A stretch of DNA of 64,000 bases from an uncultured Chlorobiaceae bacterium (GTDB lineage: Bacteria > Bacteroidota > Ignavibacteria > UBA10030 > SZUA-254): positions 10,361 through 74,360 of the forward strand of contig CAZQSM010000002.1 of NCBI GenBank assembly GCA_964596065.1. The letters run 5' to 3'. Below the pieces are notes generated by a model. The model searched no databases. It saw only the letters and a list, made by a program, of their open reading frames with translations, and had not been told where the DNA came from. Shown in pieces: positions 51,285 to 61,434 of the stretch; position 1 is the first letter of the stretch; each line of letters begins with the position of its first letter. The position numbers were made by a program, and so were the translations under genes.

Positions 51285-51635
51285 ATGATCATCGAAGAAA
51301 CCAGTGTCGGTGGCGTCGACGTGTTTCGGCTCAAGGGTGATTTCATCAGCGAACCCGACCAGACGAAATTCCAGCAGAAGGTCAGAGACCTCGTCCACGG
51401 GGGAGTCACCAGGCTGGTCGTGGACCTGCACGACGTCCATTACATCAACAGTTGCGGTATCGGTTCCCTCGTCGGGGCCCTGACGACCCTCCGCCGATCG
51501 GGCGGCGACATCCACCTCGCCGAAACCACGCGCGAGGTCAGGAGCGTCTTCGAAACCGCCCAGCTCGAACTGATATTTCATTTTCATTCCACCGTCCAGG
51601 ACGCCATCGGCGCCATCGGTCGGAAGACCCTTTAA
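51285..51635 (+). CDS. STAS-domain anti-sigma-factor antagonist (SpoIIAA/RsbV-like)
   Basis: 116 aa; LVVDLHDVHYINSCGIGSLVGA with the phosphorylatable Ser in the NSCG context typical of anti-anti-sigma factors. ATG at codon 131 of ORF 50895..; TTGACA hexamer about 55 nt upstream. Confidence 0.65.
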   Translation: MIIEETSVGGVDVFRLKGDFISEPDQTKFQQKVRDLVHGGVTRLVVDLHDVHYINSCGIGSLVGALTTLRRSGGDIHLAETTREVRSVFETAQLELIFHFHSTVQDAIGAIGRKTL

Positions 51636-51733
51636 CCAGCCACCGGGGGAGAACCACCCGCGGTCCATCATCGGTCCATTGTCCCCGGACGGGTCCGGGG
51701 GCCGGCCATTTCGTTCCCGCATCGAGCATCGGC

Positions 51734-52138
51734 ATGGAGAAAAAGTTCAGCAAGGATTTCGGTTCCCTCGACCGGATCGACGCGTTCGTCAGGTCGTTCG
51801 CGGCCGGACGCGGCCTCGACGAGGGCACCGTGTTCACGCTCAATTTCGTAATCGAGGAGATCTTCACCAACATGGTCAAGTACCAGCCCACCGCCGCGAA
51901 TGACGTCCTGATCGGACTCTCGATCGACGGCGGTTCGGTTACCGTCAAGATGGTCGACTACGGGGTGCGATACTTCGACCCGACGTCCGCTCCCCCGGTC
52001 GACACCGGGAAACCGCTCTCGGAGAGGCGCCCGGGCGGCCTCGGCGTCCACCTGGTGAAGCAGTACATGGACGACTTCAATTACGAGTATGTGGGTTCCG
52101 ACAGCATCATCACACTGACAAAAAAACTGAAGGTTTAG
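51734..52138 (+). CDS. anti-sigma regulatory factor, RsbW/SpoIIAB-like serine kinase (HATPase_c_2)
   Basis: 134 aa; NFVIEEIFTNMVKY (N-box) and GGLGVHLVKQYMDDFNY (G-box) of GHKL ATPases of the RsbW type. Confidence 0.6.
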   Translation: MEKKFSKDFGSLDRIDAFVRSFAAGRGLDEGTVFTLNFVIEEIFTNMVKYQPTAANDVLIGLSIDGGSVTVKMVDYGVRYFDPTSAPPVDTGKPLSERRPGGLGVHLVKQYMDDFNYEYVGSDSIITLTKKLKV

Positions 52139-52139
52139 C

Positions 52140-52424
52140 ATGTTCGACGCGACAATACCGGGGGAGGGACGGATCCTGCTCTCCGGACGATTTGATGCGG
52201 CCCAGGTCGAGAAGGCGAGGGCCGTCTTCGACCTGGTGAACGTCCATACGGTGGTGGATTTCGCCCAACTCGATTATATCTCGAGCGCCGGACTCGGGAT
52301 ACTCCTGATGACCCAACGGCGCCTGAAGGAGTCGGGGACCGGCCTGAAGCTGATCAACATGAACAAGCATATCAGGGACGTCTTCCAGTACGCGGGTTTC
52401 GACAAGATTTTTGAAATCGCTTGA
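52140..52424 (+). CDS. second STAS-domain anti-sigma-factor antagonist
   Basis: 94 aa; VDFAQLDYISSAGLGILL with the conserved Ser in the DxISSAG context. Starts 1 nt after the kinase stop. Confidence 0.6.
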   Translation: MFDATIPGEGRILLSGRFDAAQVEKARAVFDLVNVHTVVDFAQLDYISSAGLGILLMTQRRLKESGTGLKLINMNKHIRDVFQYAGFDKIFEIA

Positions 52425-52521
52425 AAAAAGTCCGTTATCCGGCCCGTTTTGGCATGTTTAAGCGCCCGGGAGGATGTTTCGGCGGAGATCCCAACTTTTT
52501 CCCTGATCGCCTGTACTTCCA

Positions 52522-53055
52522 ATGACCGAAGACCAGACACTGGTCCGGCGATACCTCGGCGGAGAGCGCGGGGCCTTCGAACCCCTGGTGGACCGGTACC
52601 AGAAGACGATCTACAATGTCGCGCTCCGGATGGCCCGCGATCCGGACGACGCCGCGGACATCACGCAAAACGTCTTCATCAAGGCGTCGGAAAAACTGGG
52701 GAGTTACGATCCGAAGTACAAGTTTTTCAGCTGGATCTACAGGATCGCGGTCAACGAGTCGCTGAATTTCGTCGGGTCGAAGCGGAGGAACGACGAATTG
52801 CCGGAGGACCTGGTCTCCGGCGAGGGCAATCCGGAAGAGATGCTCCAGGCGGGGATGCTTTCACACTCGGTCGAGGAAGGGCTCGCGAAACTGACCGACG
52901 ACAACCGGATCGTGATCATCCTCCGCCACTTCGAAGAGCTGTCGTACGACGAGATCGGCTTCATCCTCGACCTGCCCGTGAAAACGGTCAAATCGCGGCT
53001 CTTCACGGCGAGGCAATCACTGAAAAAAATTTTATTACAGAAATTCGAACAATGA
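52522..53055 (+). CDS. RNA polymerase sigma-70 factor, ECF subfamily
   Basis: Region 2 (YQKTIYNVALRMARDPDDAADITQNVFIKA) and region 4 HTH (LSYDEIGFILDLPVKTVKSRL). Confidence 0.85.
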   Translation: MTEDQTLVRRYLGGERGAFEPLVDRYQKTIYNVALRMARDPDDAADITQNVFIKASEKLGSYDPKYKFFSWIYRIAVNESLNFVGSKRRNDELPEDLVSGEGNPEEMLQAGMLSHSVEEGLAKLTDDNRIVIILRHFEELSYDEIGFILDLPVKTVKSRLFTARQSLKKILLQKFEQ

Positions 53056-54434
53056 AACCAACGGATTATCGGGAACTGGTCTACCGGGAACTCGACGGGG
53101 ACCTCACGCCGGAGGAGTCGGCGAAGCTCGGGGAGATGCTCGCCTCCGATCCGGAAGCGCGCATGTTCCACGACGAATGCCGCTCGATGTTCGCGATGCT
53201 GCGGGAAATCCCCAGGCGGGAGCCGTCGTCCCAGTTGAAGAAGAAGATCCTCAACAGCATTAAACCGCCGGCGCCCACTCGCCGGCATTCCATCATTCAC
53301 ACAATCACATCAACATTCACTTTTTCACAATATCAGGAGGTCGGTATGAAAAACAAGCTCATCATCGGCGGAGCGCTGGCCGCGGTCGCGGTCCTCTACT
53401 TCGCGGTTCTGTATCCCTGGCCGTCGGAATCCGAACTGTTCGGGACCATCGGCGGGGCCAAGAAATACCGTTCCGAGCAGATCGCCGACAAGGACGTCGT
53501 CCTGGAAGGGCAGGAAAACTCGACAGACGGTTCTTCGGGCGGATCGGCAAACGACGGCGGCCTCGGCCGCTCGGCGGAAGTCTTCCGCAGCGCGGACGTG
53601 CAGAAGCTCGCGGAGATCGCCCGCACCGCCGACGTGCAGAAGCTCGCGGAGATCGCCCGCACCGCCGACGTTCAAAAGCTGGCGGCGATCGCCCGCACGG
53701 CGGACTACTACCGCACGGCCGACGTCCAGAAGCTCGCGGAGATCGCGCGCACGGCCGACGTCCGGAAGTTCGCGGAGATCGCGCGCACGGCCGACGTCCA
53801 GAAACTCGCGGAGATCGCGCGCACGGCTGACGTCCAGAAGCTCGCGGATATCGCCCGCACGGCGGATTTCTACCGTACCGCGGACGTCCAGAAACTCGCG
53901 GCCATTGCCCGCACGGCTGATGTCCAGAAGCTGGCGGAGATCTCCCGCACCGCCGATGTCCAGAAAATGGCGGACATCGCGCGCACGGCCGACGTGCAGA
54001 AGCTTGCCGAGATCGCCCGCACGGCCGACGTGCAGAAGCTGGCCGAGATCGCCCGGACCGCGGACTTCTATCGCACGGCCGACGTGCAGAAGGTTGCCGA
54101 CATCGCCCGCACGGCGGATGTCCAGCGCATGGCGGACGTCGCCCGCACGGCGGATGTCCAGCGGATGACGGCCATCGCCCGCACGGCCGACGTGCAGAGG
54201 CTCGCCGACATCGCCCGCACCGCCGAGGTCTACCGCACGGCCGACGTGCAGAAGCTGGCGGAGATCGCGCGCACGGCGGATGTCCAGCGCATGGCGGACA
54301 TCGCCCGTACGGCGGACGTCCAGCGGATGACGGCCATTGCCCGCACGGCGGACCTTCAGAAGCTCGCGGAAATCGCGCGTACGACCGACATCCAGAAGAT
54401 GGCGGATATCGCCCGCTCCGCTTCCCACGAATAA
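53052..54434 (+). CDS. single-pass anti-sigma factor with tandem-repeat extracytoplasmic domain
   Basis: ATG overlaps the sigma-gene stop (ATGA). N-terminal 98 aa resemble an anti-sigma N-terminal domain (YRELDGDLTPEESAKL..FHDEC, degenerate zf-HC2). TM helix at residues 100-121. Residues 181-456 are 21 copies of ARTADVQKLAEI plus 4 AD(Y/F)YRT hexamers. Confidence 0.65.
   Translation: MKPTDYRELVYRELDGDLTPEESAKLGEMLASDPEARMFHDECRSMFAMLREIPRREPSSQLKKKILNSIKPPAPTRRHSIIHTITSTFTFSQYQEVGMKNKLIIGGALAAVAVLYFAVLYPWPSESELFGTIGGAKKYRSEQIADKDVVLEGQENSTDGSSGGSANDGGLGRSAEVFRSADVQKLAEIARTADVQKLAEIARTADVQKLAAIARTADYYRTADVQKLAEIARTADVRKFAEIARTADVQKLAEIARTADVQKLADIARTADFYRTADVQKLAAIARTADVQKLAEISRTADVQKMADIARTADVQKLAEIARTADVQKLAEIARTADFYRTADVQKVADIARTADVQRMADVARTADVQRMTAIARTADVQRLADIARTAEVYRTADVQKLAEIARTADVQRMADIARTADVQRMTAIARTADLQKLAEIARTTDIQKMADIARSASHE
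53592..54419 (+). repeat. in-frame 36-bp tandem repeat array (21 units) with four 18-bp punctuation units, coding ARTADVQKLAEI
   Basis: The period-36 repetition is directly visible in the sequence (gcccgcacggccgacgtgcagaagctcgcggagatc, etc.). Units differ mainly at synonymous third positions. Mirror ORFs on the minus strand are artefacts of the repeat. Confidence 0.9.
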
Positions 54435-54461
54435 CAGACGGCATCCCGACCGACGGTCGGA

Positions 54462-54492
54462 GGGGGGACGCCCGGCGTCCCCCCTTTTTTTT
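54462..54492 (+). terminator. rho-independent terminator downstream of the anti-sigma gene
   Basis: GGGGGGACG-cccgg-CGTCCCCCC stem-loop (9-10 bp G/C stem) immediately followed by T8. Lies 28 nt after the stop codon and only about 35 nt before the next ATG. Confidence 0.75.
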
Positions 54493-54527
54493 GCCCCCCT
54501 TTGGCATTTTTTTTAATATATTCACGA

Positions 54528-57509
54528 ATGCGTTTCACCATTTCCGTGGGCCGGATATCGGCCCGTCTGCGATTCGGCCTCCTGCTCCTGTCCGCCGCCG
54601 CGTCGGCGCCCGTCGGCGGGCCGCTCAGGGCCCAGTTCACGACGCTCGAGACGGAGCGCCAGCGCCTGATCTGGTACGACCCGGGCATCGACTACCTGAT
54701 CCCCCACGCGGCGCGGACCTTCGAGAACGCGATGACCTTTCACATGCGATTGTTCGACTATGAGCCGTCGGAGAAGGTCAGCGTCTTTCTCCACGATTTC
54801 AACGACTACGGCACGGGCGGGACGAGCACCATCCCGTGGAATTTCCTCAATATCGGCGTCGAGCCGTATGATTACGTCTACGAGACGGCCCCCACGAACG
54901 AGAGGATGAACTGGGTCTTCAACCACGAACTGGCCCACCTGGTCGCGGTGGACAAGCCCGCCGGCAGCGACCGCTTCTTCCGGTCGGTCTTCTTCGGGAA
55001 GGTGCTCCCGGTGGCCGAGAACCCCGTTTCGATGTTCTACAGCTTCCTGACCAACCCGCGATGGTATTCCCCCAGGTGGTACCACGAGGGGATCGCCACC
55101 TTCCTCGAGACCTGGATGGCCGGCGGCATCGGCAGGGCGCTCGGCGGTTACGACGAGATGATGTTCCGGACGATGGTGGCCGATTCCACCTACTTCTACG
55201 ATTTCGTCGGGATCGAGTCGGAGGGGACGACGATCGATTTCCAGATCGGGGCCAACGCGTACCTCTACGGGACCCGCTTCGTCAGTTACGTGGCGCTGAC
55301 GCGCGGGCCTGAAAAAATCCTGGAGTGGTTCAACCGGTCGGAGGGGAGCTCCGCCTACTTCGCCTCGCGGTTCGAGCAGGTCACGGGGAGCTCCCTCGAC
55401 GACGAATGGTCGCGCTGGATAGAGTTCGAGAAACGGTGGCAGCGCGCGAACCTCGATTCGGTGGGGACCTATCCCCTCACGCCGTACCGCGTGATCTACG
55501 ACGGCGTCCTCGGCTCAGTCTCGCGTCAATTCTATGATTCGGCGGCCGGTGAAATCTATTGCGCCGTCAATTATCCGGGCGCCACCGCCCACATCGCCGG
55601 GATCGACGTGGGGAGCGGGACGAAAGAGGCGCTCGTCGACGTCGAGACCCCGACCCTCTACTATGTCACGTCCATCGCCTACGATCCGGTACTCCGCAGG
55701 ATCTACTACACCACCGATAATTCCCGCTACTGGCGGGACATCAGGGTCCTCGACCTGAACACCGGCGACGACCGGAAGCTCTACAACGACGTCCGGACCG
55801 GGGACCTGGTCGTCAACCCGGCCGACCGGTCGCTCTGGGGGGTCCAGCACAACCGGGGAATCTCGAAGGTCGTCAGGATGCCCGACCCGTACACCCACCA
55901 GTACGAGGTCCTCGAGCTCGCCTACGGCAACGACCTCTTCGACCTCGACATTTCCCCCGACGGGAGGACGCTGATGGGGGTGCTGCTGGAGATCAACGGG
56001 CGGCAGAAGCTCGTCAGGATGGAGATCGATTCACTCGTCGCGGGCGTCCGCTCCCACGAGACGATCTACGAATTCGAGAACAACTCGCCGGCGAATTTCG
56101 TCTTTTCCCCGGACGGGAAGTCGGTCTACGGCACCTCGTACTACACCGGGGTGTCGAACGTGTTCAGGATCGACCTGGAGACGAAAAAACTCGACGCCCT
56201 CACGAACGCGGAGACCGGGATGTTTCGTCCCATCCCGTACACCGCGGATTCGATCATCGCATTCCGGTATTCGGGGAAGGGATTCATCCCGGTGGCGATC
56301 CCCATCCGGCCGACGGAGGACATCGCCCCGATCCGGTACCTCGGCCAGCAGATCGTCGAGCAGCACCCGGTCGTCACCACGTGGAAACTCGAACCCCCCA
56401 ACCCGCAGCGGATCAACATCGACTCGCTCACGATCTCCAGGGGCGAATACGACGGGCTGGGCGGCCTGCGCGTCGCCTCGGTCTACCCGATCGTGCAGGG
56501 ATACAAGGACGTCTACGCGCTCGGATTGACGGCGACGATCTCCGATCCGCTGCCGGTCCATTATTTCCTCCTGACGGGGTCGTGGTCCCCCAACCGCGAC
56601 CTGCCGGCGAAGGAACGGTTTCACGGTTCGGCGGAGTATTTCTACCAGACCTGGAAATTCGGCGCGGGGTACAACACCGCGGATTTCTATGACCTCTTCG
56701 GTCCCACCAAATCGAGCCGAAAGGGGTACACAGCGTCGATCGGCTACAGCCGGACAGTCTTCGAGGAGCGGCCCCGTTCGTTCGACTACGGCCTCACCCT
56801 GTCGGGCTTCTCGGACCTTGACCGGCTGCCCGACGCCCAGAACGTCACCCCGACGGTCGACCGGTTCCTCAGCCTCGGCCTGAGGCTCAATTATACGGCG
56901 TTGATGCGGACGCTCGGCGCCAACGATCACGAGCGGGGAATCAAGGCCACGCTCAACCTCAGCAGCAAGTACGGGACGAAGAAGTACTTCCCCAGGGTCC
57001 ATGCCACGTTCGATTACGGGCTGATCCTCTGGCAGCATTCGTCGCTCTGGTTCCGGACGTCGGCGGGCAATTCGTTCGGAGACCGTTCGAACACGCTGGC
57101 GAATTTCTACTTCGGCGGTTTCGGCAACAACTGGGTGGACCACGGCGAGGTGCGGCGGTACCGGGACTATTACAGTTTCCCGGGCGTCGAGATCAATGAT
57201 CTGGGGGGAAGCAACTTCGCCAAACTCACGCTCGAGTGGGACCTCCCGCCGATCCGCTTCAGGCGGGTGGGACTGCCCGCGGCCTACGCCAACTGGGCGA
57301 GGGTGGCGCTGATCTCCACCGGACTGGTGACGAACCTCGACGATGAGTCGCTGCGCCAGCGCGCGCTGAGCGTGGGGGCGCAGCTGGACCTCAAGCTGGT
57401 GTTGTTCTCCAACCAGGAATCGACCCTTTCAGGCGGCTTCGCGGCTGCCTTCCGGCCCGACCAGCGGCGCACGAGGGAGTGGATGGTGTCGCTGAAAATC
57501 CTCCGGTGA
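54528..57509 (+). CDS. 994-aa secreted protein: N-terminal HExxH (gluzincin-like) module, central PD40/TolB-like beta-propeller repeats, C-terminal beta-rich (outer-membrane-barrel-like) region
   Basis: Signal peptide MRFTISVGRISARLRFGLLLLSAAASAPVGGPLRAQ (ATG 54528; the TTG at 54501 proposed by the ORF caller was rejected). WVFNHELAHLVAVD HExxH with a downstream WYHEGIATFLE candidate third ligand. SPDGRTLMGV and FSPDGKSVYGT propeller blades. Last about 350 aa show alternating hydrophobic patterns. Confidence 0.55.
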   Translation: MRFTISVGRISARLRFGLLLLSAAASAPVGGPLRAQFTTLETERQRLIWYDPGIDYLIPHAARTFENAMTFHMRLFDYEPSEKVSVFLHDFNDYGTGGTSTIPWNFLNIGVEPYDYVYETAPTNERMNWVFNHELAHLVAVDKPAGSDRFFRSVFFGKVLPVAENPVSMFYSFLTNPRWYSPRWYHEGIATFLETWMAGGIGRALGGYDEMMFRTMVADSTYFYDFVGIESEGTTIDFQIGANAYLYGTRFVSYVALTRGPEKILEWFNRSEGSSAYFASRFEQVTGSSLDDEWSRWIEFEKRWQRANLDSVGTYPLTPYRVIYDGVLGSVSRQFYDSAAGEIYCAVNYPGATAHIAGIDVGSGTKEALVDVETPTLYYVTSIAYDPVLRRIYYTTDNSRYWRDIRVLDLNTGDDRKLYNDVRTGDLVVNPADRSLWGVQHNRGISKVVRMPDPYTHQYEVLELAYGNDLFDLDISPDGRTLMGVLLEINGRQKLVRMEIDSLVAGVRSHETIYEFENNSPANFVFSPDGKSVYGTSYYTGVSNVFRIDLETKKLDALTNAETGMFRPIPYTADSIIAFRYSGKGFIPVAIPIRPTEDIAPIRYLGQQIVEQHPVVTTWKLEPPNPQRINIDSLTISRGEYDGLGGLRVASVYPIVQGYKDVYALGLTATISDPLPVHYFLLTGSWSPNRDLPAKERFHGSAEYFYQTWKFGAGYNTADFYDLFGPTKSSRKGYTASIGYSRTVFEERPRSFDYGLTLSGFSDLDRLPDAQNVTPTVDRFLSLGLRLNYTALMRTLGANDHERGIKATLNLSSKYGTKKYFPRVHATFDYGLILWQHSSLWFRTSAGNSFGDRSNTLANFYFGGFGNNWVDHGEVRRYRDYYSFPGVEINDLGGSNFAKLTLEWDLPPIRFRRVGLPAAYANWARVALISTGLVTNLDDESLRQRALSVGAQLDLKLVLFSNQESTLSGGFAAAFRPDQRRTREWMVSLKILR

Positions 57510-57534: not shown

Positions 57535-58560
57535 ATGAACATGGTTTCCGCCGACAGGCTCCTCGACATCGCGGTGAGCGTGCTCCCCGTGTTCCTCTTC
57601 CTCCTTGCCCTGGTGTTCCTCGACAGTTACAAGCTCGTGAAGGTCCACGAGGTGGCGGGGACCATCATCTTCGGGGCGCTCTCGGCGGTCGCGGCCCTCT
57701 TCCTGAACACGTTCATCGCCCAGTATGTGCCGAGGGGCATGCACATCATGCCCCGGTACGTCGGGCCGGTCACCGAGGAGGTCCTCAAGGCGGTGTTCGT
57801 GGTCTACCTCATCCGCAGCGGCAAGGTGGGGTTCATGGTGGACGCGGCGATCCACGGCTTCGCCGCCGGCGCCGGGTTCGCGTTCATGGAGAACGTCTAC
57901 TACCTCCAGACGGTCGGGGGGAGTTCCACCATGGTGGTATGGCTGATCCGCGGCTTCGGGACGGCCGTGATGCACGGCGGCACGGCGGCGATCATGGCGA
58001 TCATCGTGAAGAGCCTCGCCGACCGCTCCCCGTCGCCCCGGCTCTGGCACCTGGCCCCGGGCGCCGGCGCCGCGATGCTGCTCCATTCCTTTTTCAATCA
58101 TTTCCCCCTTCCGCCGCAGTTCATGACGGCGTTCCTGCTCGTCTCGCTGCCGCCGATCATGGTGTGGGTCTTCCACCGGAGCGAGAAGTCGACACGCGAG
58201 TGGCTCGGGGTCGGCTTCGACACCGATGCCACGCTCCTGGAAGCCGTGAACACCGGGGAGGTTTCCCGCACGAAGGTGGGGGAATACCTGGAGACCCTGA
58301 AGGCCAAGTTTCCGGGGGAGCTGGTCGCCGACATGCTCTGCATGCTGCGGATCCACCTGGAGCTCTCCATCCGGGCCAAGGGGGTCCTGCTGATGCGAGA
58401 GCACGGGTTCGAGTCGAAACCGGAGCCGGACACCGCGGAAAAGTTTTCGGAGCTGGACTATCTCGAGAAGAGCCTCGGCAAGACGGGGATGATGGCGATC
58501 AAGCCCTTCCTCCATACCACCTCCAGGGACCTGTGGCAGCTCTATTCGATCGGCCGATGA
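57535..58560 (+). CDS. prsW: PrsW-family intramembrane metalloprotease
   Basis: Polytopic; conserved PrsW blocks EExxK (VTEEVLKAV), FxxxH/FAFMEN (IHGFAAGAGFAFMENVYY) and HGGTAAIMA; long cytoplasmic C-terminal tail. Confidence 0.7.
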   Translation: MNMVSADRLLDIAVSVLPVFLFLLALVFLDSYKLVKVHEVAGTIIFGALSAVAALFLNTFIAQYVPRGMHIMPRYVGPVTEEVLKAVFVVYLIRSGKVGFMVDAAIHGFAAGAGFAFMENVYYLQTVGGSSTMVVWLIRGFGTAVMHGGTAAIMAIIVKSLADRSPSPRLWHLAPGAGAAMLLHSFFNHFPLPPQFMTAFLLVSLPPIMVWVFHRSEKSTREWLGVGFDTDATLLEAVNTGEVSRTKVGEYLETLKAKFPGELVADMLCMLRIHLELSIRAKGVLLMREHGFESKPEPDTAEKFSELDYLEKSLGKTGMMAIKPFLHTTSRDLWQLYSIGR

Positions 58561-59033
58561 CCGCGACGCGCGGAAGGGGGGCGTGGCCGGCGGTCACGGC
58601 CGCCGTGACGCTCTTCCTCCTCGCCTCCTGCGGGGCGCCCCCCGCGCCCGACTGGCGGAGCGAGGTGAGCGCACTCCTCACCGCCCAGGCCGCGGCGTGG
58701 AACCGCGGGGACATCGCCGGATACATGGACGGGTACTGGCGGTCGGACAGCCTCCTGTTCACCAGCGGCGGCTCGGTCAGGAGGGGGTGGTCGGAGACAT
58801 TCAAAAAGTACGCCGCGACCTACGATTCGCGTGAGAAAATGGGAACGCTCACCTTCTCCGGTCTGGAATTCCACCTCCCCGCCCCCGGCGCGGCGTGGGT
58901 CTTCGGCCGGTGGGAACTGGCCCGGGCCTCCGACGCGCCCGGCGGCGTGTTCACCGTCGTCCTCCGGCGCTTCCCCGAAGGATGGAAAATCGTCCACGAC
59001 CATACATCGTCCGACCCGGAACAACACCAGTGA
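58557..59033 (+). CDS. SnoaL-like / DUF4440 (NTF2-fold) lipoprotein
   Basis: ATG overlaps the prsW stop (ATGA). Lipobox LLASCG. LTAQAAAWNRGDIAGYMDGYWRSDSLLF...VFGRWEL...GWKIVHDHTS is typical of NTF2-like DUF4440. Confidence 0.5.
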   Translation: MTATRGRGAWPAVTAAVTLFLLASCGAPPAPDWRSEVSALLTAQAAAWNRGDIAGYMDGYWRSDSLLFTSGGSVRRGWSETFKKYAATYDSREKMGTLTFSGLEFHLPAPGAAWVFGRWELARASDAPGGVFTVVLRRFPEGWKIVHDHTSSDPEQHQ

Positions 59034-59938: not shown

Positions 59939-60087
59939 ACCGGGGGATTTTTCTCCCCCGCGGAATTTTCGTATAATGGTGAACAACCGCCATCCCGGCG
60001 CGTACACCCGTGGGCGCCGGGCCGTCACGTTTCCCGCGTTGCCGCTCACAATCAACGATTCCCAGTACAATGACATTGGAGGAGATT

Positions 60088-61434
60088 ATGTTCAGAGGCA
60101 TCAGTCTGGTCGTGATGACGCTGCTCGGGGGTTTCGCCCTGACGGCGCAGCAGGACGAGAGCAAGGTTTTTCCGTACCCGATCAACCAGGTCACGCTCGA
60201 CAACGGCCTGAAGATCGTTTCGATCCCGTTCGACAGCCCCGGGATCGTCGCCTTTTACACGGTGGTGAGGACCGGTTCGCGCAACGAGGTGGAGCCCGGC
60301 AAATCGGGCTTCGCCCATTTCTTCGAGCATATGATGTTCCGCGGGACGGAGAAATACGACAAGACCGCCTTTAACGAAATCCTCCAGTCGATCGGGGCCG
60401 ACAACAACGCGTTCACCTCCGACGACCAGACGGTCTATCATACGCTCGCGAGCGCCGACGCCCTCGAGACGATGATGGACATGGAGTCGGACCGGTTCAT
60501 GAACCTGAAGTACTCCGAGGAGGACTTCAAGACCGAGGCGGGCGCGATCCTCGGCGAATACAACAAGAACTATTCGAGCCCCTTCATGACCATCTTCGAG
60601 AAGATGCGCGAAGCGGCGTACGAGCAGCACACCTACAAGCACACCACGATGGGCTTCCTGAAGGACATCGAGGACATGCCGAACCAGTACCAGTACAGCC
60701 TGGAGTTCTTCGATCGCTGGTACCGGCCGGAGAACTGCGTGCTGGTGATCGTCGGGGATTTCGACCAGGAGAAGCTCGTGGCCCTGGCGAAGAAATATTA
60801 CGGTCCGTGGAAACGCGGGACCTACAAGCTCGACGTTCCGCTCGACGCTCCCCAGACGGCGGAGAAGCTGATCAACCTCCCCTGGAAGGCCAAGACGCTG
60901 CCGATCGTCGCCATCGGCTACCACGGGCCGGCGTTCAGCGACAATTCACGCGACATGCCGGCGATGGACCTCCTCTCGCAGCTCGTCTTCTCGCAGACGT
61001 CCGACCTTTTCCGCAAGCTGGTCATCGAACAGCAGCTGGTGGAGTTCGTGCAGGGCAGCCAACCGGACAGCAGGGACCCGGGCCTCTTCACCATCTTCGC
61101 GCGGGTGAAGGACCCGAAGAACATCGACCTGGTCCGCGAGGAGATCGAGAAGGCGATCGCGGACGCGATGGTGACGCCGGTGTCGGCGGAGCGGCTGAAG
61201 GACATCAAATCGCACCTGAAATACCAGTACGCGATGGGGCTCGACAACCCGAACTCGGTGGCGAACAGCATCAGCCATTACATCCAGCTCACGGGCGACC
61301 CCGAATCGGTGAACAGGGTCTACCGGCTCTACGACCAGATCACGCCCGCGGACATCCAGGCCGCGGCGAAGAAATATCTCACCAGGACCAACAGGACCAC
61401 GGTCATTCTCAAGCAGGAGGAGAGCTCACAATGA
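60088..61434 (+). CDS. M16-family (pitrilysin-like) zinc peptidase, catalytic subunit
   Basis: Signal peptide; inverted zinc motif HFFEHMMFRGT (HxxEH) plus downstream E; GGAGG ribosome-binding site. Confidence 0.8.
   Translation: MFRGISLVVMTLLGGFALTAQQDESKVFPYPINQVTLDNGLKIVSIPFDSPGIVAFYTVVRTGSRNEVEPGKSGFAHFFEHMMFRGTEKYDKTAFNEILQSIGADNNAFTSDDQTVYHTLASADALETMMDMESDRFMNLKYSEEDFKTEAGAILGEYNKNYSSPFMTIFEKMREAAYEQHTYKHTTMGFLKDIEDMPNQYQYSLEFFDRWYRPENCVLVIVGDFDQEKLVALAKKYYGPWKRGTYKLDVPLDAPQTAEKLINLPWKAKTLPIVAIGYHGPAFSDNSRDMPAMDLLSQLVFSQTSDLFRKLVIEQQLVEFVQGSQPDSRDPGLFTIFARVKDPKNIDLVREEIEKAIADAMVTPVSAERLKDIKSHLKYQYAMGLDNPNSVANSISHYIQLTGDPESVNRVYRLYDQITPADIQAAAKKYLTRTNRTTVILKQEESSQ

Follow-up and report, generated by a model that had tools for sequence, protein, structure and literature searches.

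The gene analyzed here, which we call BIG, lies on the forward strand of a 64,000-nucleotide stretch of contig CAZQSM010000002.1 from an uncultured Chlorobiaceae bacterium (the window in the following) and encodes a secreted protein of 993 amino acids composed of a gluzincin domain, a TolB-like propeller and an outer-membrane barrel. In related genomes BIG is regularly flanked by a gene for a PrsW-family intramembrane protease and by a gene for a membrane-anchored repeat protein, called X below. From this arrangement we infer that BIG, PrsW and the inner-membrane-anchored X form a conserved envelope-spanning proteolytic set, which is mostly wired to a sigma factor of the extracytoplasmic function (ECF) type and its anti-sigma factor. 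The reading that we tentatively favor, plausible though we stop short of calling it probable, is that BIG acts as an outer-membrane-tethered periplasmic protease that works together with PrsW on X or the anti-sigma factor and thereby controls the sigma factor.

Conserved gene neighborhood of BIG

The gene neighborhoods of 84 BIG loci from phyla of the Fibrobacteres-Chlorobi-Bacteroidetes (FCB) group and from Acidobacteriota were compared, using the window's own proteins as tblastn queries. The most constant neighbor of BIG is the PrsW-family gene. In 72 of the 75 loci with enough sequence, from more than 10 phyla, it follows BIG directly in the same orientation, separated by a median of 34 nt (25 nt in the window). 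The same pairing occurs in a Gemmatimonadota chromosome, in Cloacimonadota (34% identity) and in two more lineages (34-40% identity). The PrsW-family protein of the window matches PF13367 with E = 2.4e-21 and 76.6 bits (cut-off 23.5), and the motifs EExxK, GFxxEN, MHG and HxxxN are conserved in the BIG-linked PrsW homologues. A gene of this family, catalytic motifs included, is thus present together with genes for an ECF sigma factor and a single-pass anti-sigma factor. With 25.8 bits against the PrsW equivalog model (cut-off 225) it is to be regarded as a family member and not as an equivalog. Its conserved C-terminal extension of approximately 130 residues (residues ~212-341), with the pattern SE..WLG.G.D.D ... 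DMLC.L ... EL...AKG.L ... G.TG..A..P....LWQ, is absent from the 218-residue PrsW of B. subtilis.

On the 5' side, most BIG loci contain two genes, A and X, that separate the sigma gene from BIG. A encodes the anti-sigma factor (approximately 260 amino acids, one transmembrane segment), while X encodes a protein of 230-810 amino acids, reaching 1135 amino acids in the Gemmatimonadota locus L002, in which an N-terminal membrane anchor is followed by the near-invariant juxtamembrane motif GTIGG..KYR..QI..DVVL and then by helical tandem repeats. Such X genes were noted in the loci L005, L017, L018, L050, L058, L065, L079 and others. The repeats are lineage-specific, short (8-12 amino acids) and helical, for example ATLQEKA..ER, EAFRNALNS or KSDAFAQAM; in the window the 12-residue unit is ARTADVQKLAEI, encoded by DNA repeats of 36 nt. 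One X member passes the Pfam threshold for the LED repeat and the other members have no family. No conserved C-terminal tag was seen by eye among the X sequences inspected.

Searched as a regular expression in six frames of approximately 1 Mb, the juxtamembrane motif was found in 49 of 87 sequences, once in each, always 5' of BIG and on its strand. Of the 63 loci that extend 2.5 kb or more to the 5' side of BIG, 61 gave a hit for X there, on the strand of BIG, with a hidden Markov model (HMM) of the motif, among them loci without a sigma gene; since the model was built from the regular-expression hits, these seed hits are circular, whereas the additionally recovered loci are not. Moreover, in at least 12 of 45 loci, among them the window, the N-terminal domain of the anti-sigma factor is fused in frame to the anchor, motif and repeats of X, which ties X functionally to the control of the sigma factor (a link of the Rosetta-stone type). 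In the window, the start codon of this fusion gene at 53052 overlaps the stop codon of the sigma gene (ATGA, 53052-53055), which implies translational coupling. The gene order thus suggests a conserved core of X, BIG and PrsW that is usually plugged into an ECF sigma factor.

An initial annotation, made from the letters of the window, had placed BIG directly downstream of a sigma/anti-sigma pair, and this is correct (sigma gene 52522-53055, anti-sigma gene from 53052). It had also proposed that the target of BIG is the repeat ectodomain of the anti-sigma factor encoded next to it. That proposal, though unproven, is strengthened by the conservation of the X-BIG-PrsW trio across phyla and by the fusion of X to the anti-sigma factor in the window.

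BIG itself is widespread, with more than 4400 homologous hits among the candidates scored and at least 600 matching genomes in a scan of one genome per species. The best 80 of these at least 600 loci share 46-57% identity over the full length and come from Bacteroidota (Ignavibacteria, Balneolales, Rhodothermales and Chlorobi-like lineages), from KSB1, Eisenbacteria, Latescibacterota, Krumholzibacteria, Zixibacteria, Calditrichota, Fibrobacterota and Marinimicrobia, and also from several classes of Acidobacteriota; the Gemmatimonadota locus was found by a separate look-up. Nearly all homologues are annotated as hypothetical protein.

Domain architecture and active site

The reading frame of BIG is open from a TTG at 54501 and its stop codon ends at 57509; the ATG at 54528 was taken as start, in agreement with the N-termini of the homologues in an alignment of 38 sequences. 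An AlphaFold2 model based on this alignment (mean predicted local distance difference test score, pLDDT, 80.4; predicted template modeling score, pTM, 0.79) contains a helical N-domain (residues 37-315), a six-bladed propeller (325-595), a short linker and a series of strands (648-991), while the region of the predicted signal peptide appears as a low-confidence N-terminal helix. Each of the three domains found a match in fold searches. The search with the whole model was dominated by propellers, and the N-domain was therefore modeled and searched alone. Hence, BIG is confirmed as a secreted protein of three domains, a gluzincin, a TolB-like propeller and an outer-membrane barrel, as had been proposed for each part in the initial annotation.

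The two motifs on which the peptidase assignment was originally based are present, NHELAHLV at residues 132-139 and WYHEGIATFLE at residues 184-194, but their spacing had been overestimated at about 60 residues: E187 falls 49 residues past the second His of HExxH. All of 38 close homologues (52-83% identity) carry H133, E134, H137 and E187. Among 29 full-length relatives with only 23-49% identity, HExxH is retained in 27 and E187 in 28, while G248 is invariant and Y245/Y247 are conserved in at least 90%. The gluzincin assignment thus holds up, and the loss of HExxH in homologues, by which the initial annotation would have been refuted, was not observed as a rule. Searched exhaustively with HMMER, 1.84 billion cluster representatives contained 2583 matches at E <= 0.001, and for 458 the E value was at most 1e-30. 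In the model, HELAH is located on a helix (residues 123-142) and E187 on a second one (183-197), and the N-domain adopts a thermolysin-like/M1-like catalytic fold.

The relation to known peptidases is remote. Searches of the PDB by sequence, with the protein, a full-length profile and an N-domain profile, returned no significant match to a solved peptidase, only weak TolB/propeller hits and a non-significant match to IRAP. This M1 enzyme gave the best peptidase alignment of the N-domain profile, weak with E = 1.5, in which W..EGIA of BIG falls on WLNEGFA with the third zinc ligand and YLYG on SYFKG with the catalytic Tyr. The Pfam family Peptidase_MA_2 (PF13485) gave no hit to BIG at E <= 0.1; it matches 15 of the 38 homologues at E <= 0.01 (best 6e-6), which indicates a distant relationship only. 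An assignment of BIG to the M1 peptidases was rejected: the M1 aminopeptidases of clan MA(E) have 18 residues between HExxH and the Glu, compared to 49 in BIG, which also lacks the exopeptidase motif GxMEN. Because of this spacing and the missing GxMEN, BIG is more likely an endopeptidase than an aminopeptidase. The M30 peptidases hyicolysin and lugdulysin are also gluzincins of clan MA(E).

The conservation of its motifs suggests that the zincin of BIG is catalytically competent. Two full-length relatives, P0149 and P0170, carry RESMQ and YQTTQ in place of HExxH and have kept propeller and barrel; judged by their sequences, they may be pseudo-protease paralogues. One could take these two proteins, together with the Pfam peptidase thresholds that BIG does not reach, as a hint that BIG is a non-catalytic scaffold or sensor, in which the zincin fold serves as a peptide-binding module (e.g., holding the end of X) and all cuts are made by PrsW and other proteases. 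However, the retention of HExxH (27 of 29), E187 (28 of 29) and the Tyr (at least 90%) in relatives down to 23% identity speaks against a mere binding function, and the conservation of the general-base Glu in particular is hard to explain without catalysis. We regard such a scaffold as improbable.

Propeller, barrel and the known subfamily

The propeller of BIG consists of 24 strands arranged in six four-stranded blades, and both the model and the fold search support the earlier claim of TolB/PD40-like blades. Orthology to TolB was rejected (17.8 bits for TIGR02800, cut-off 343), the propeller alone being common to both proteins. A linker of 52 residues (596-647), modeled as two helices and one strand, leads to approximately 16-17 long antiparallel strands (648-991), which correspond to the 16-stranded barrel of Omp85 proteins; the barrel-like pattern noted earlier at the C-terminus has therefore found a structural counterpart in model and fold search. 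Pfam Omp85_2 is narrowly missed by BIG (22.4 bits, cut-off 23.1) and matches 6 of the 38 homologues at E <= 0.01, and a PF19143 hit is precomputed for one close homologue, P0006. The loop at the L6 position (residues 850-895, 45 residues) contains the strongly conserved FYFGGFGNNxVD..RYR..SFPG, and no RG[FY] of the canonical Omp85 L6 motif (V/I)RG(F/Y) occurs in it. Pfam detected no POTRA domain in BIG. The best-conserved stretch of the whole protein, NxxDFYDLFGPTKxSRKGY at residues 714-734 (window ~56667-56729), sits in a loop or short helix linking barrel strands 5 and 6 and may represent a barrel plug or a contact site.

The initial annotation could not assign this combination of domains to a named family, but one exists. 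Heinz and Lithgow (2014; Front Microbiol 5:370, PMC4104836) defined a "WD40-like Omp85" subfamily with a non-POTRA N-terminus. For its members from Caldithrix, Rhodothermus, Chloroherpeton, Cloacimonas and Sorangium, their Table S3 gives matches to a BamA/TamA barrel and to TolB as well as a "best aminopeptidase hit", which falls on M1 structures. BIG has the same three-part architecture and an overlapping set of taxa; by this architecture and these taxa, and not by accession, it belongs to this catalogued, uncharacterized subfamily. A BamA-BamB-like fusion was proposed there without assigning a function, and the text of PMC4104836 neither discusses the peptidase domain nor notes a link to PrsW, a repeat protein or an ECF sigma factor. 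Our literature searches for WD40-Omp85, for PrsW together with Omp85, for PrsW gene neighborhoods and for the LED repeat found no functional work.

The barrel raises the question of export. Omp85/TpsB relatives translocate proteins, export was raised in PMC4104836 for Omp85 proteins with an enzymatic N-domain, and X resembles many surface proteins in its length, its repeats and its variation in size. BIG might accordingly be a translocator or surface protease whose barrel exports its own zincin and propeller (type Vd-like) or the repeats of X (in the manner of two-partner secretion, TPS), in the service of nutrient acquisition or adhesion. However, the prototype PlpD keeps its enzyme domain periplasmic, according to PMC11116518. 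Furthermore, X is anchored to the membrane by its N-terminus and lacks a TPS domain, in at least 12 loci it forms one protein with a cytoplasmic anti-sigma domain, and the constant partner of BIG, PrsW, is an inner-membrane protease. Hence, we consider an export function very doubtful.

Sigma factor, promoter and terminator

An ECF sigma gene was found 5' of BIG in 39 of 52 loci (approximately 75%), and in 34 of the 52 the HATPase, STAS and sigma genes all occur there. The presence of partner-switching genes by an ECF sigma factor with a transmembrane anti-sigma factor suggests a dual control, from the cytoplasm and from the envelope.

Bipartite motifs were enumerated in the 160 nt 5' of the sigma genes. 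The motif CCAACTT-N12-13-TGTA occurs 5' of sigma in 31-32 of 47 loci, compared to at most 5 in shuffles; its fuller form reads ACCAACTTTT-N12-13-TGTAnTT, with a -35-like element that is unusual for ECF promoters. The distance of only 5-8 nt from the end of the TGTA element to the start codon suggests leaderless sigma transcripts. Where X is a gene of its own (33 loci), the same motif also lies directly 5' of X in approximately 24 cases (second copies, e.g., at L017 3262, L018 3914 and L065 4815). From these positions, sigma, anti-sigma and X look autoregulated.

The situation 5' of BIG is different. In the 64-kb window the motif occurs a single time, at 52491-52515 in front of sigma, and in approximately 1 Mb of related loci it was never found within 250 nt 5' of BIG, so that the search for an ECF-type promoter there, which the initial annotation had recommended, came out negative. 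Enumeration of bipartite motifs 5' of BIG yielded terminator-derived patterns only and defined no promoter of its own; the window and its closest relative, L001, have a TATATT-like element in common 5-8 nt in front of the ATG, which has no statistical support. A terminator-like hairpin stands 5' of BIG in 45 of 81 loci from various phyla, compared to 1 of the 81 intragenic segments used as control. The hairpin of the window, a strong one within an otherwise closely kept gene order, may set the ratio of X to BIG/PrsW expression, or it may divide two transcription units. BIG and PrsW are probably a separate, constitutively expressed pair, which fits with both lacking the sigma promoter motif and lying behind a terminator, and which would suit components that sense or process.

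These data also bear on the suggestion in the initial annotation that BIG is a target of the ECF regulon. That BIG follows sigma and anti-sigma directly on the same strand, and that read-through of the hairpin at 54459-54487 is possible, would suit a protein whose main role is to be an output (regulon member) of the adjacent sigma factor. But the placement of the motif, 5' of sigma and X and never of BIG, and the hairpins that separate BIG from the upstream genes speak against it, and we see hardly any room for this explanation.

Table 1. Positions in the window of BIG, its domains and motifs, and the adjacent genes and signals.
Feature	Position	Strand	Evidence
STAS, HATPase_c_2 (RsbW-like) and STAS_2 genes 5' of sigma	51285..52424	+	Pfam hits
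ECF-type promoter motif CCAACTTTTTCCCTGATCGCCTGTA, ends 6 nt 5' of sigma ATG	52491..52515	+	bipartite motif enumeration
ECF sigma factor gene	52522..53055	+	Pfam Sigma70_r2, r4_2; NCBIfam sigma70-ECF 109.5 bits, over cut-off
anti-sigma::X fusion gene	53052..54434	+	anti-sigma N-domain, transmembrane segment 53358-53414, X motif, repeats 53586-54421
juxtamembrane X motif GTIGGAKKYRSEQIADKDVVL	53442..53504	+	regular expression and HMM
intrinsic-terminator-like hairpin separating anti-sigma::X from BIG	54459..54487	+	13-bp GC-rich stem and T8
BIG, gene for the zincin-propeller-Omp85 protein (993 aa)	54528..57509	+	open reading frame, homologues, structure model
predicted Sec signal peptide of BIG, residues 1-35, without lipobox Cys	54528..54632	+	inspection of MRFTISVGRISARLRFGLLLLSAAASAPVGGPLRAQ
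gluzincin (clan MA(E)-like) peptidase domain of BIG, residues 37-315	54636..55472	+	
HELAH zinc-binding/catalytic motif (H133, E134, H137)	54924..54938	+	conservation in alignments
E187, candidate third zinc ligand within W-x-x-E-G-I-A	55086..55088	+	conservation
YLYG (Y245/Y247, G248), candidate transition-state Tyr	55260..55271	+	conservation; SYFKG alignment
six-bladed TolB-like beta-propeller, residues 325-595	55500..56312	+	AlphaFold2 model, fold search
Omp85/BamA-like outer-membrane beta-barrel, residues 648-993, ~16 strands	56469..57506	+	
long loop linking barrel strands 11 and 12 (L6 position), motif FYFGGFGNNWVD..RYR..SFPG	57075..57212	+	strand list; distant-relative conservation
PrsW-family intramembrane protease gene, 25 nt 3' of BIG	57535..58560	+	Pfam PF13367

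Further downstream on the forward strand, a small open reading frame for a SnoaL-like/DUF4440 protein (58557-59033) overlaps the stop codon of the PrsW gene; as it is conserved in the closest relative L001 only, the module probably does not include it. Farther 3' lie a gene for an M16 (insulinase-type) peptidase (60010-61434) and, after it, a second open reading frame reaching to approximately 62948. The sequences suggest that the products of both are secreted, and the syntenic locus of L001 has three M16-domain genes at the equivalent position.

Proposed role and alternative explanations

How could the three proteins act together? By analogy with the topology of Omp85 proteins and with PlpD, the zincin and the propeller of BIG would reside on the periplasmic side of the barrel, and the helical repeat ectodomain of X or of the anti-sigma::X fusion would extend toward the outer membrane. 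The propeller would bind this ectodomain, and upon an envelope cue the zincin would cut or trim the repeats. Trimming would lay bare the juxtamembrane segment GTIGG..KYR..QI..DVVL, near which PrsW would then cut, and a further intramembrane cut by a putative site-2 protease would release the sigma factor. Once free, sigma would transcribe its own operon and X from the CCAACTT-N12-13-TGTA promoters, by which the off state would be restored. Beyond architecture, conservation and synteny, each step of this scheme is inferred: the topology, the substrate, the succession of the cuts and the kind of signal.

Several observations weigh against this scheme. The conserved synteny of BIG speaks for a function shared with X and PrsW and does not tell which protein cuts which. 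In 13 of the 52 loci no ECF sigma gene lies within 6 kb 5' of BIG, and the core trio may therefore act independently of sigma. X and BIG need not be co-expressed, since a terminator-like hairpin separates them. PrsW is absent beside BIG in a Bacteroidales subfamily (34% identity) and in the P0315 subfamily (30%). Concerning the enzyme itself, residues 220-244 near the active site are modeled with a pLDDT below 50, and the Pfam and NCBIfam scans of BIG returned no peptidase family, only sub-threshold hits to Omp85_2, PD40, TolB and Dpp5. BIG itself thus stays below every Pfam peptidase threshold.

Alternatively, BIG could be a protease of quality control or outer-membrane biogenesis, comparable to BepA or to DegP at the beta-barrel assembly machinery (BAM), which would degrade misfolded proteins of the outer membrane or periplasm, with X and PrsW as co-workers or substrates in a housekeeping proteolysis and with the ECF sigma factor as merely a nearby stress regulator. 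The identity of 46-57% among BIG proteins across phyla is as expected of a housekeeping envelope factor, the 13 loci in which the trio has no adjacent sigma gene fit as well, and quality-control or BAM-related roles were raised for non-POTRA Omp85 proteins in PMC4104836. However, such a role leaves unexplained why BIG is paired almost obligately with X and its invariant juxtamembrane motif, and why X is recurrently fused to an anti-sigma domain. Moreover, BIG without an ECF promoter is no obvious stress-induced effector. We therefore rate this alternative as unlikely.

Returning to the proteolytic control of sigma by BIG and PrsW, a more general and more speculative proposal, which we put forward with clear reservation as a possibility, is that X-BIG-PrsW constitutes a widespread envelope-spanning signaling device. 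An Omp85-anchored protease would read the state of the outer membrane or periplasm by cutting X as a helical "ruler" of variable length and would hand the stub to PrsW, by which the ECF sigma factor is switched on. Such a device would be found in Bacteroidota (Ignavibacteria, Rhodothermia, Balneolia), Calditrichota, Gemmatimonadota, Zixibacteria, Latescibacterota, KSB1, Fibrobacterota, Cloacimonadota and Acidobacteriota.

Comparison with known systems

E. coli DegS/RseA and Bacillus PrsW/RsiW are the textbook models of envelope stress. The window resembles the B. subtilis sigmaW/RsiW/PrsW/RasP pathway in that a PrsW-family protease is encoded beside an ECF sigma factor and a single-pass anti-sigma factor. 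Unlike B. subtilis, the hosts of the module have two membranes, an outer-membrane zincin and X are added, and the BIG-linked PrsW carries the C-terminal extension of approximately 130 amino acids and scores below the equivalog level. The succession of cuts proposed above would mirror this pathway: Heinrich, Hein and Wiegert reportedly found in 2009 that in B. subtilis extracytoplasmic trimming by other peptidases is required after the PrsW cut and before the site-2 cut by RasP.

In the sigmaE system of E. coli (RseA, DegS, RseP, RseB), a single-pass anti-sigma factor is cut by several proteases in turn, which frees an envelope-stress ECF sigma factor, with the status of the outer membrane as trigger. 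The module would share this principle, but its proteases belong to other families; DegS is anchored in the inner membrane whereas BIG is held by a barrel, and E. coli has no repeat protein. BepA, a soluble M48 zincin that acts at BAM, has tetratricopeptide repeats (TPR) instead of a propeller and is not fused to a barrel.

Another Omp85 protein with an enzymatic part is the patatin-like PlpD of type Vd. It likewise combines an Omp85 barrel with a non-POTRA enzymatic N-terminal domain, which was shown to be periplasmic (PMC11116518). In contrast to BIG it is a lipase with a POTRA domain that forms homodimers, and it is not known to have a propeller or a PrsW or sigma context. The Dma system is described as a case in which the control of an ECF sigma factor in Bacteroidota physically involves the outer membrane. 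There, the anti-sigma factor itself spans both membranes, while in the module described here it is another protein, an Omp85 barrel with a protease domain, that is assigned to the outer membrane.

Significance

The architecture of BIG was already known as an entry in the catalogue of 2014, and we believe that its genomic context is new. In the literature searched we came across no description of the X-BIG-PrsW(-ECF) module, of the X motif or of the promoter motif. The BIG family is very large, yet almost everywhere its members are called hypothetical protein. If the proposed reading of the module is true, it would provide the first function for a non-POTRA Omp85 subfamily, and the defined CCAACTT-N12-13-TGTA promoter could be used as a reporter. 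To our knowledge, envelope-stress sensing in the relatives of Bacteroidota, in Acidobacteriota, in Gemmatimonadota and in their kin is largely unknown. The fixed module of an outer-membrane protease, a PrsW-type protease, X and an autoregulated ECF sigma factor would represent a concrete candidate for such an envelope-stress pathway, in which X-BIG-PrsW would fill the role that DegS/RseA has in Proteobacteria.

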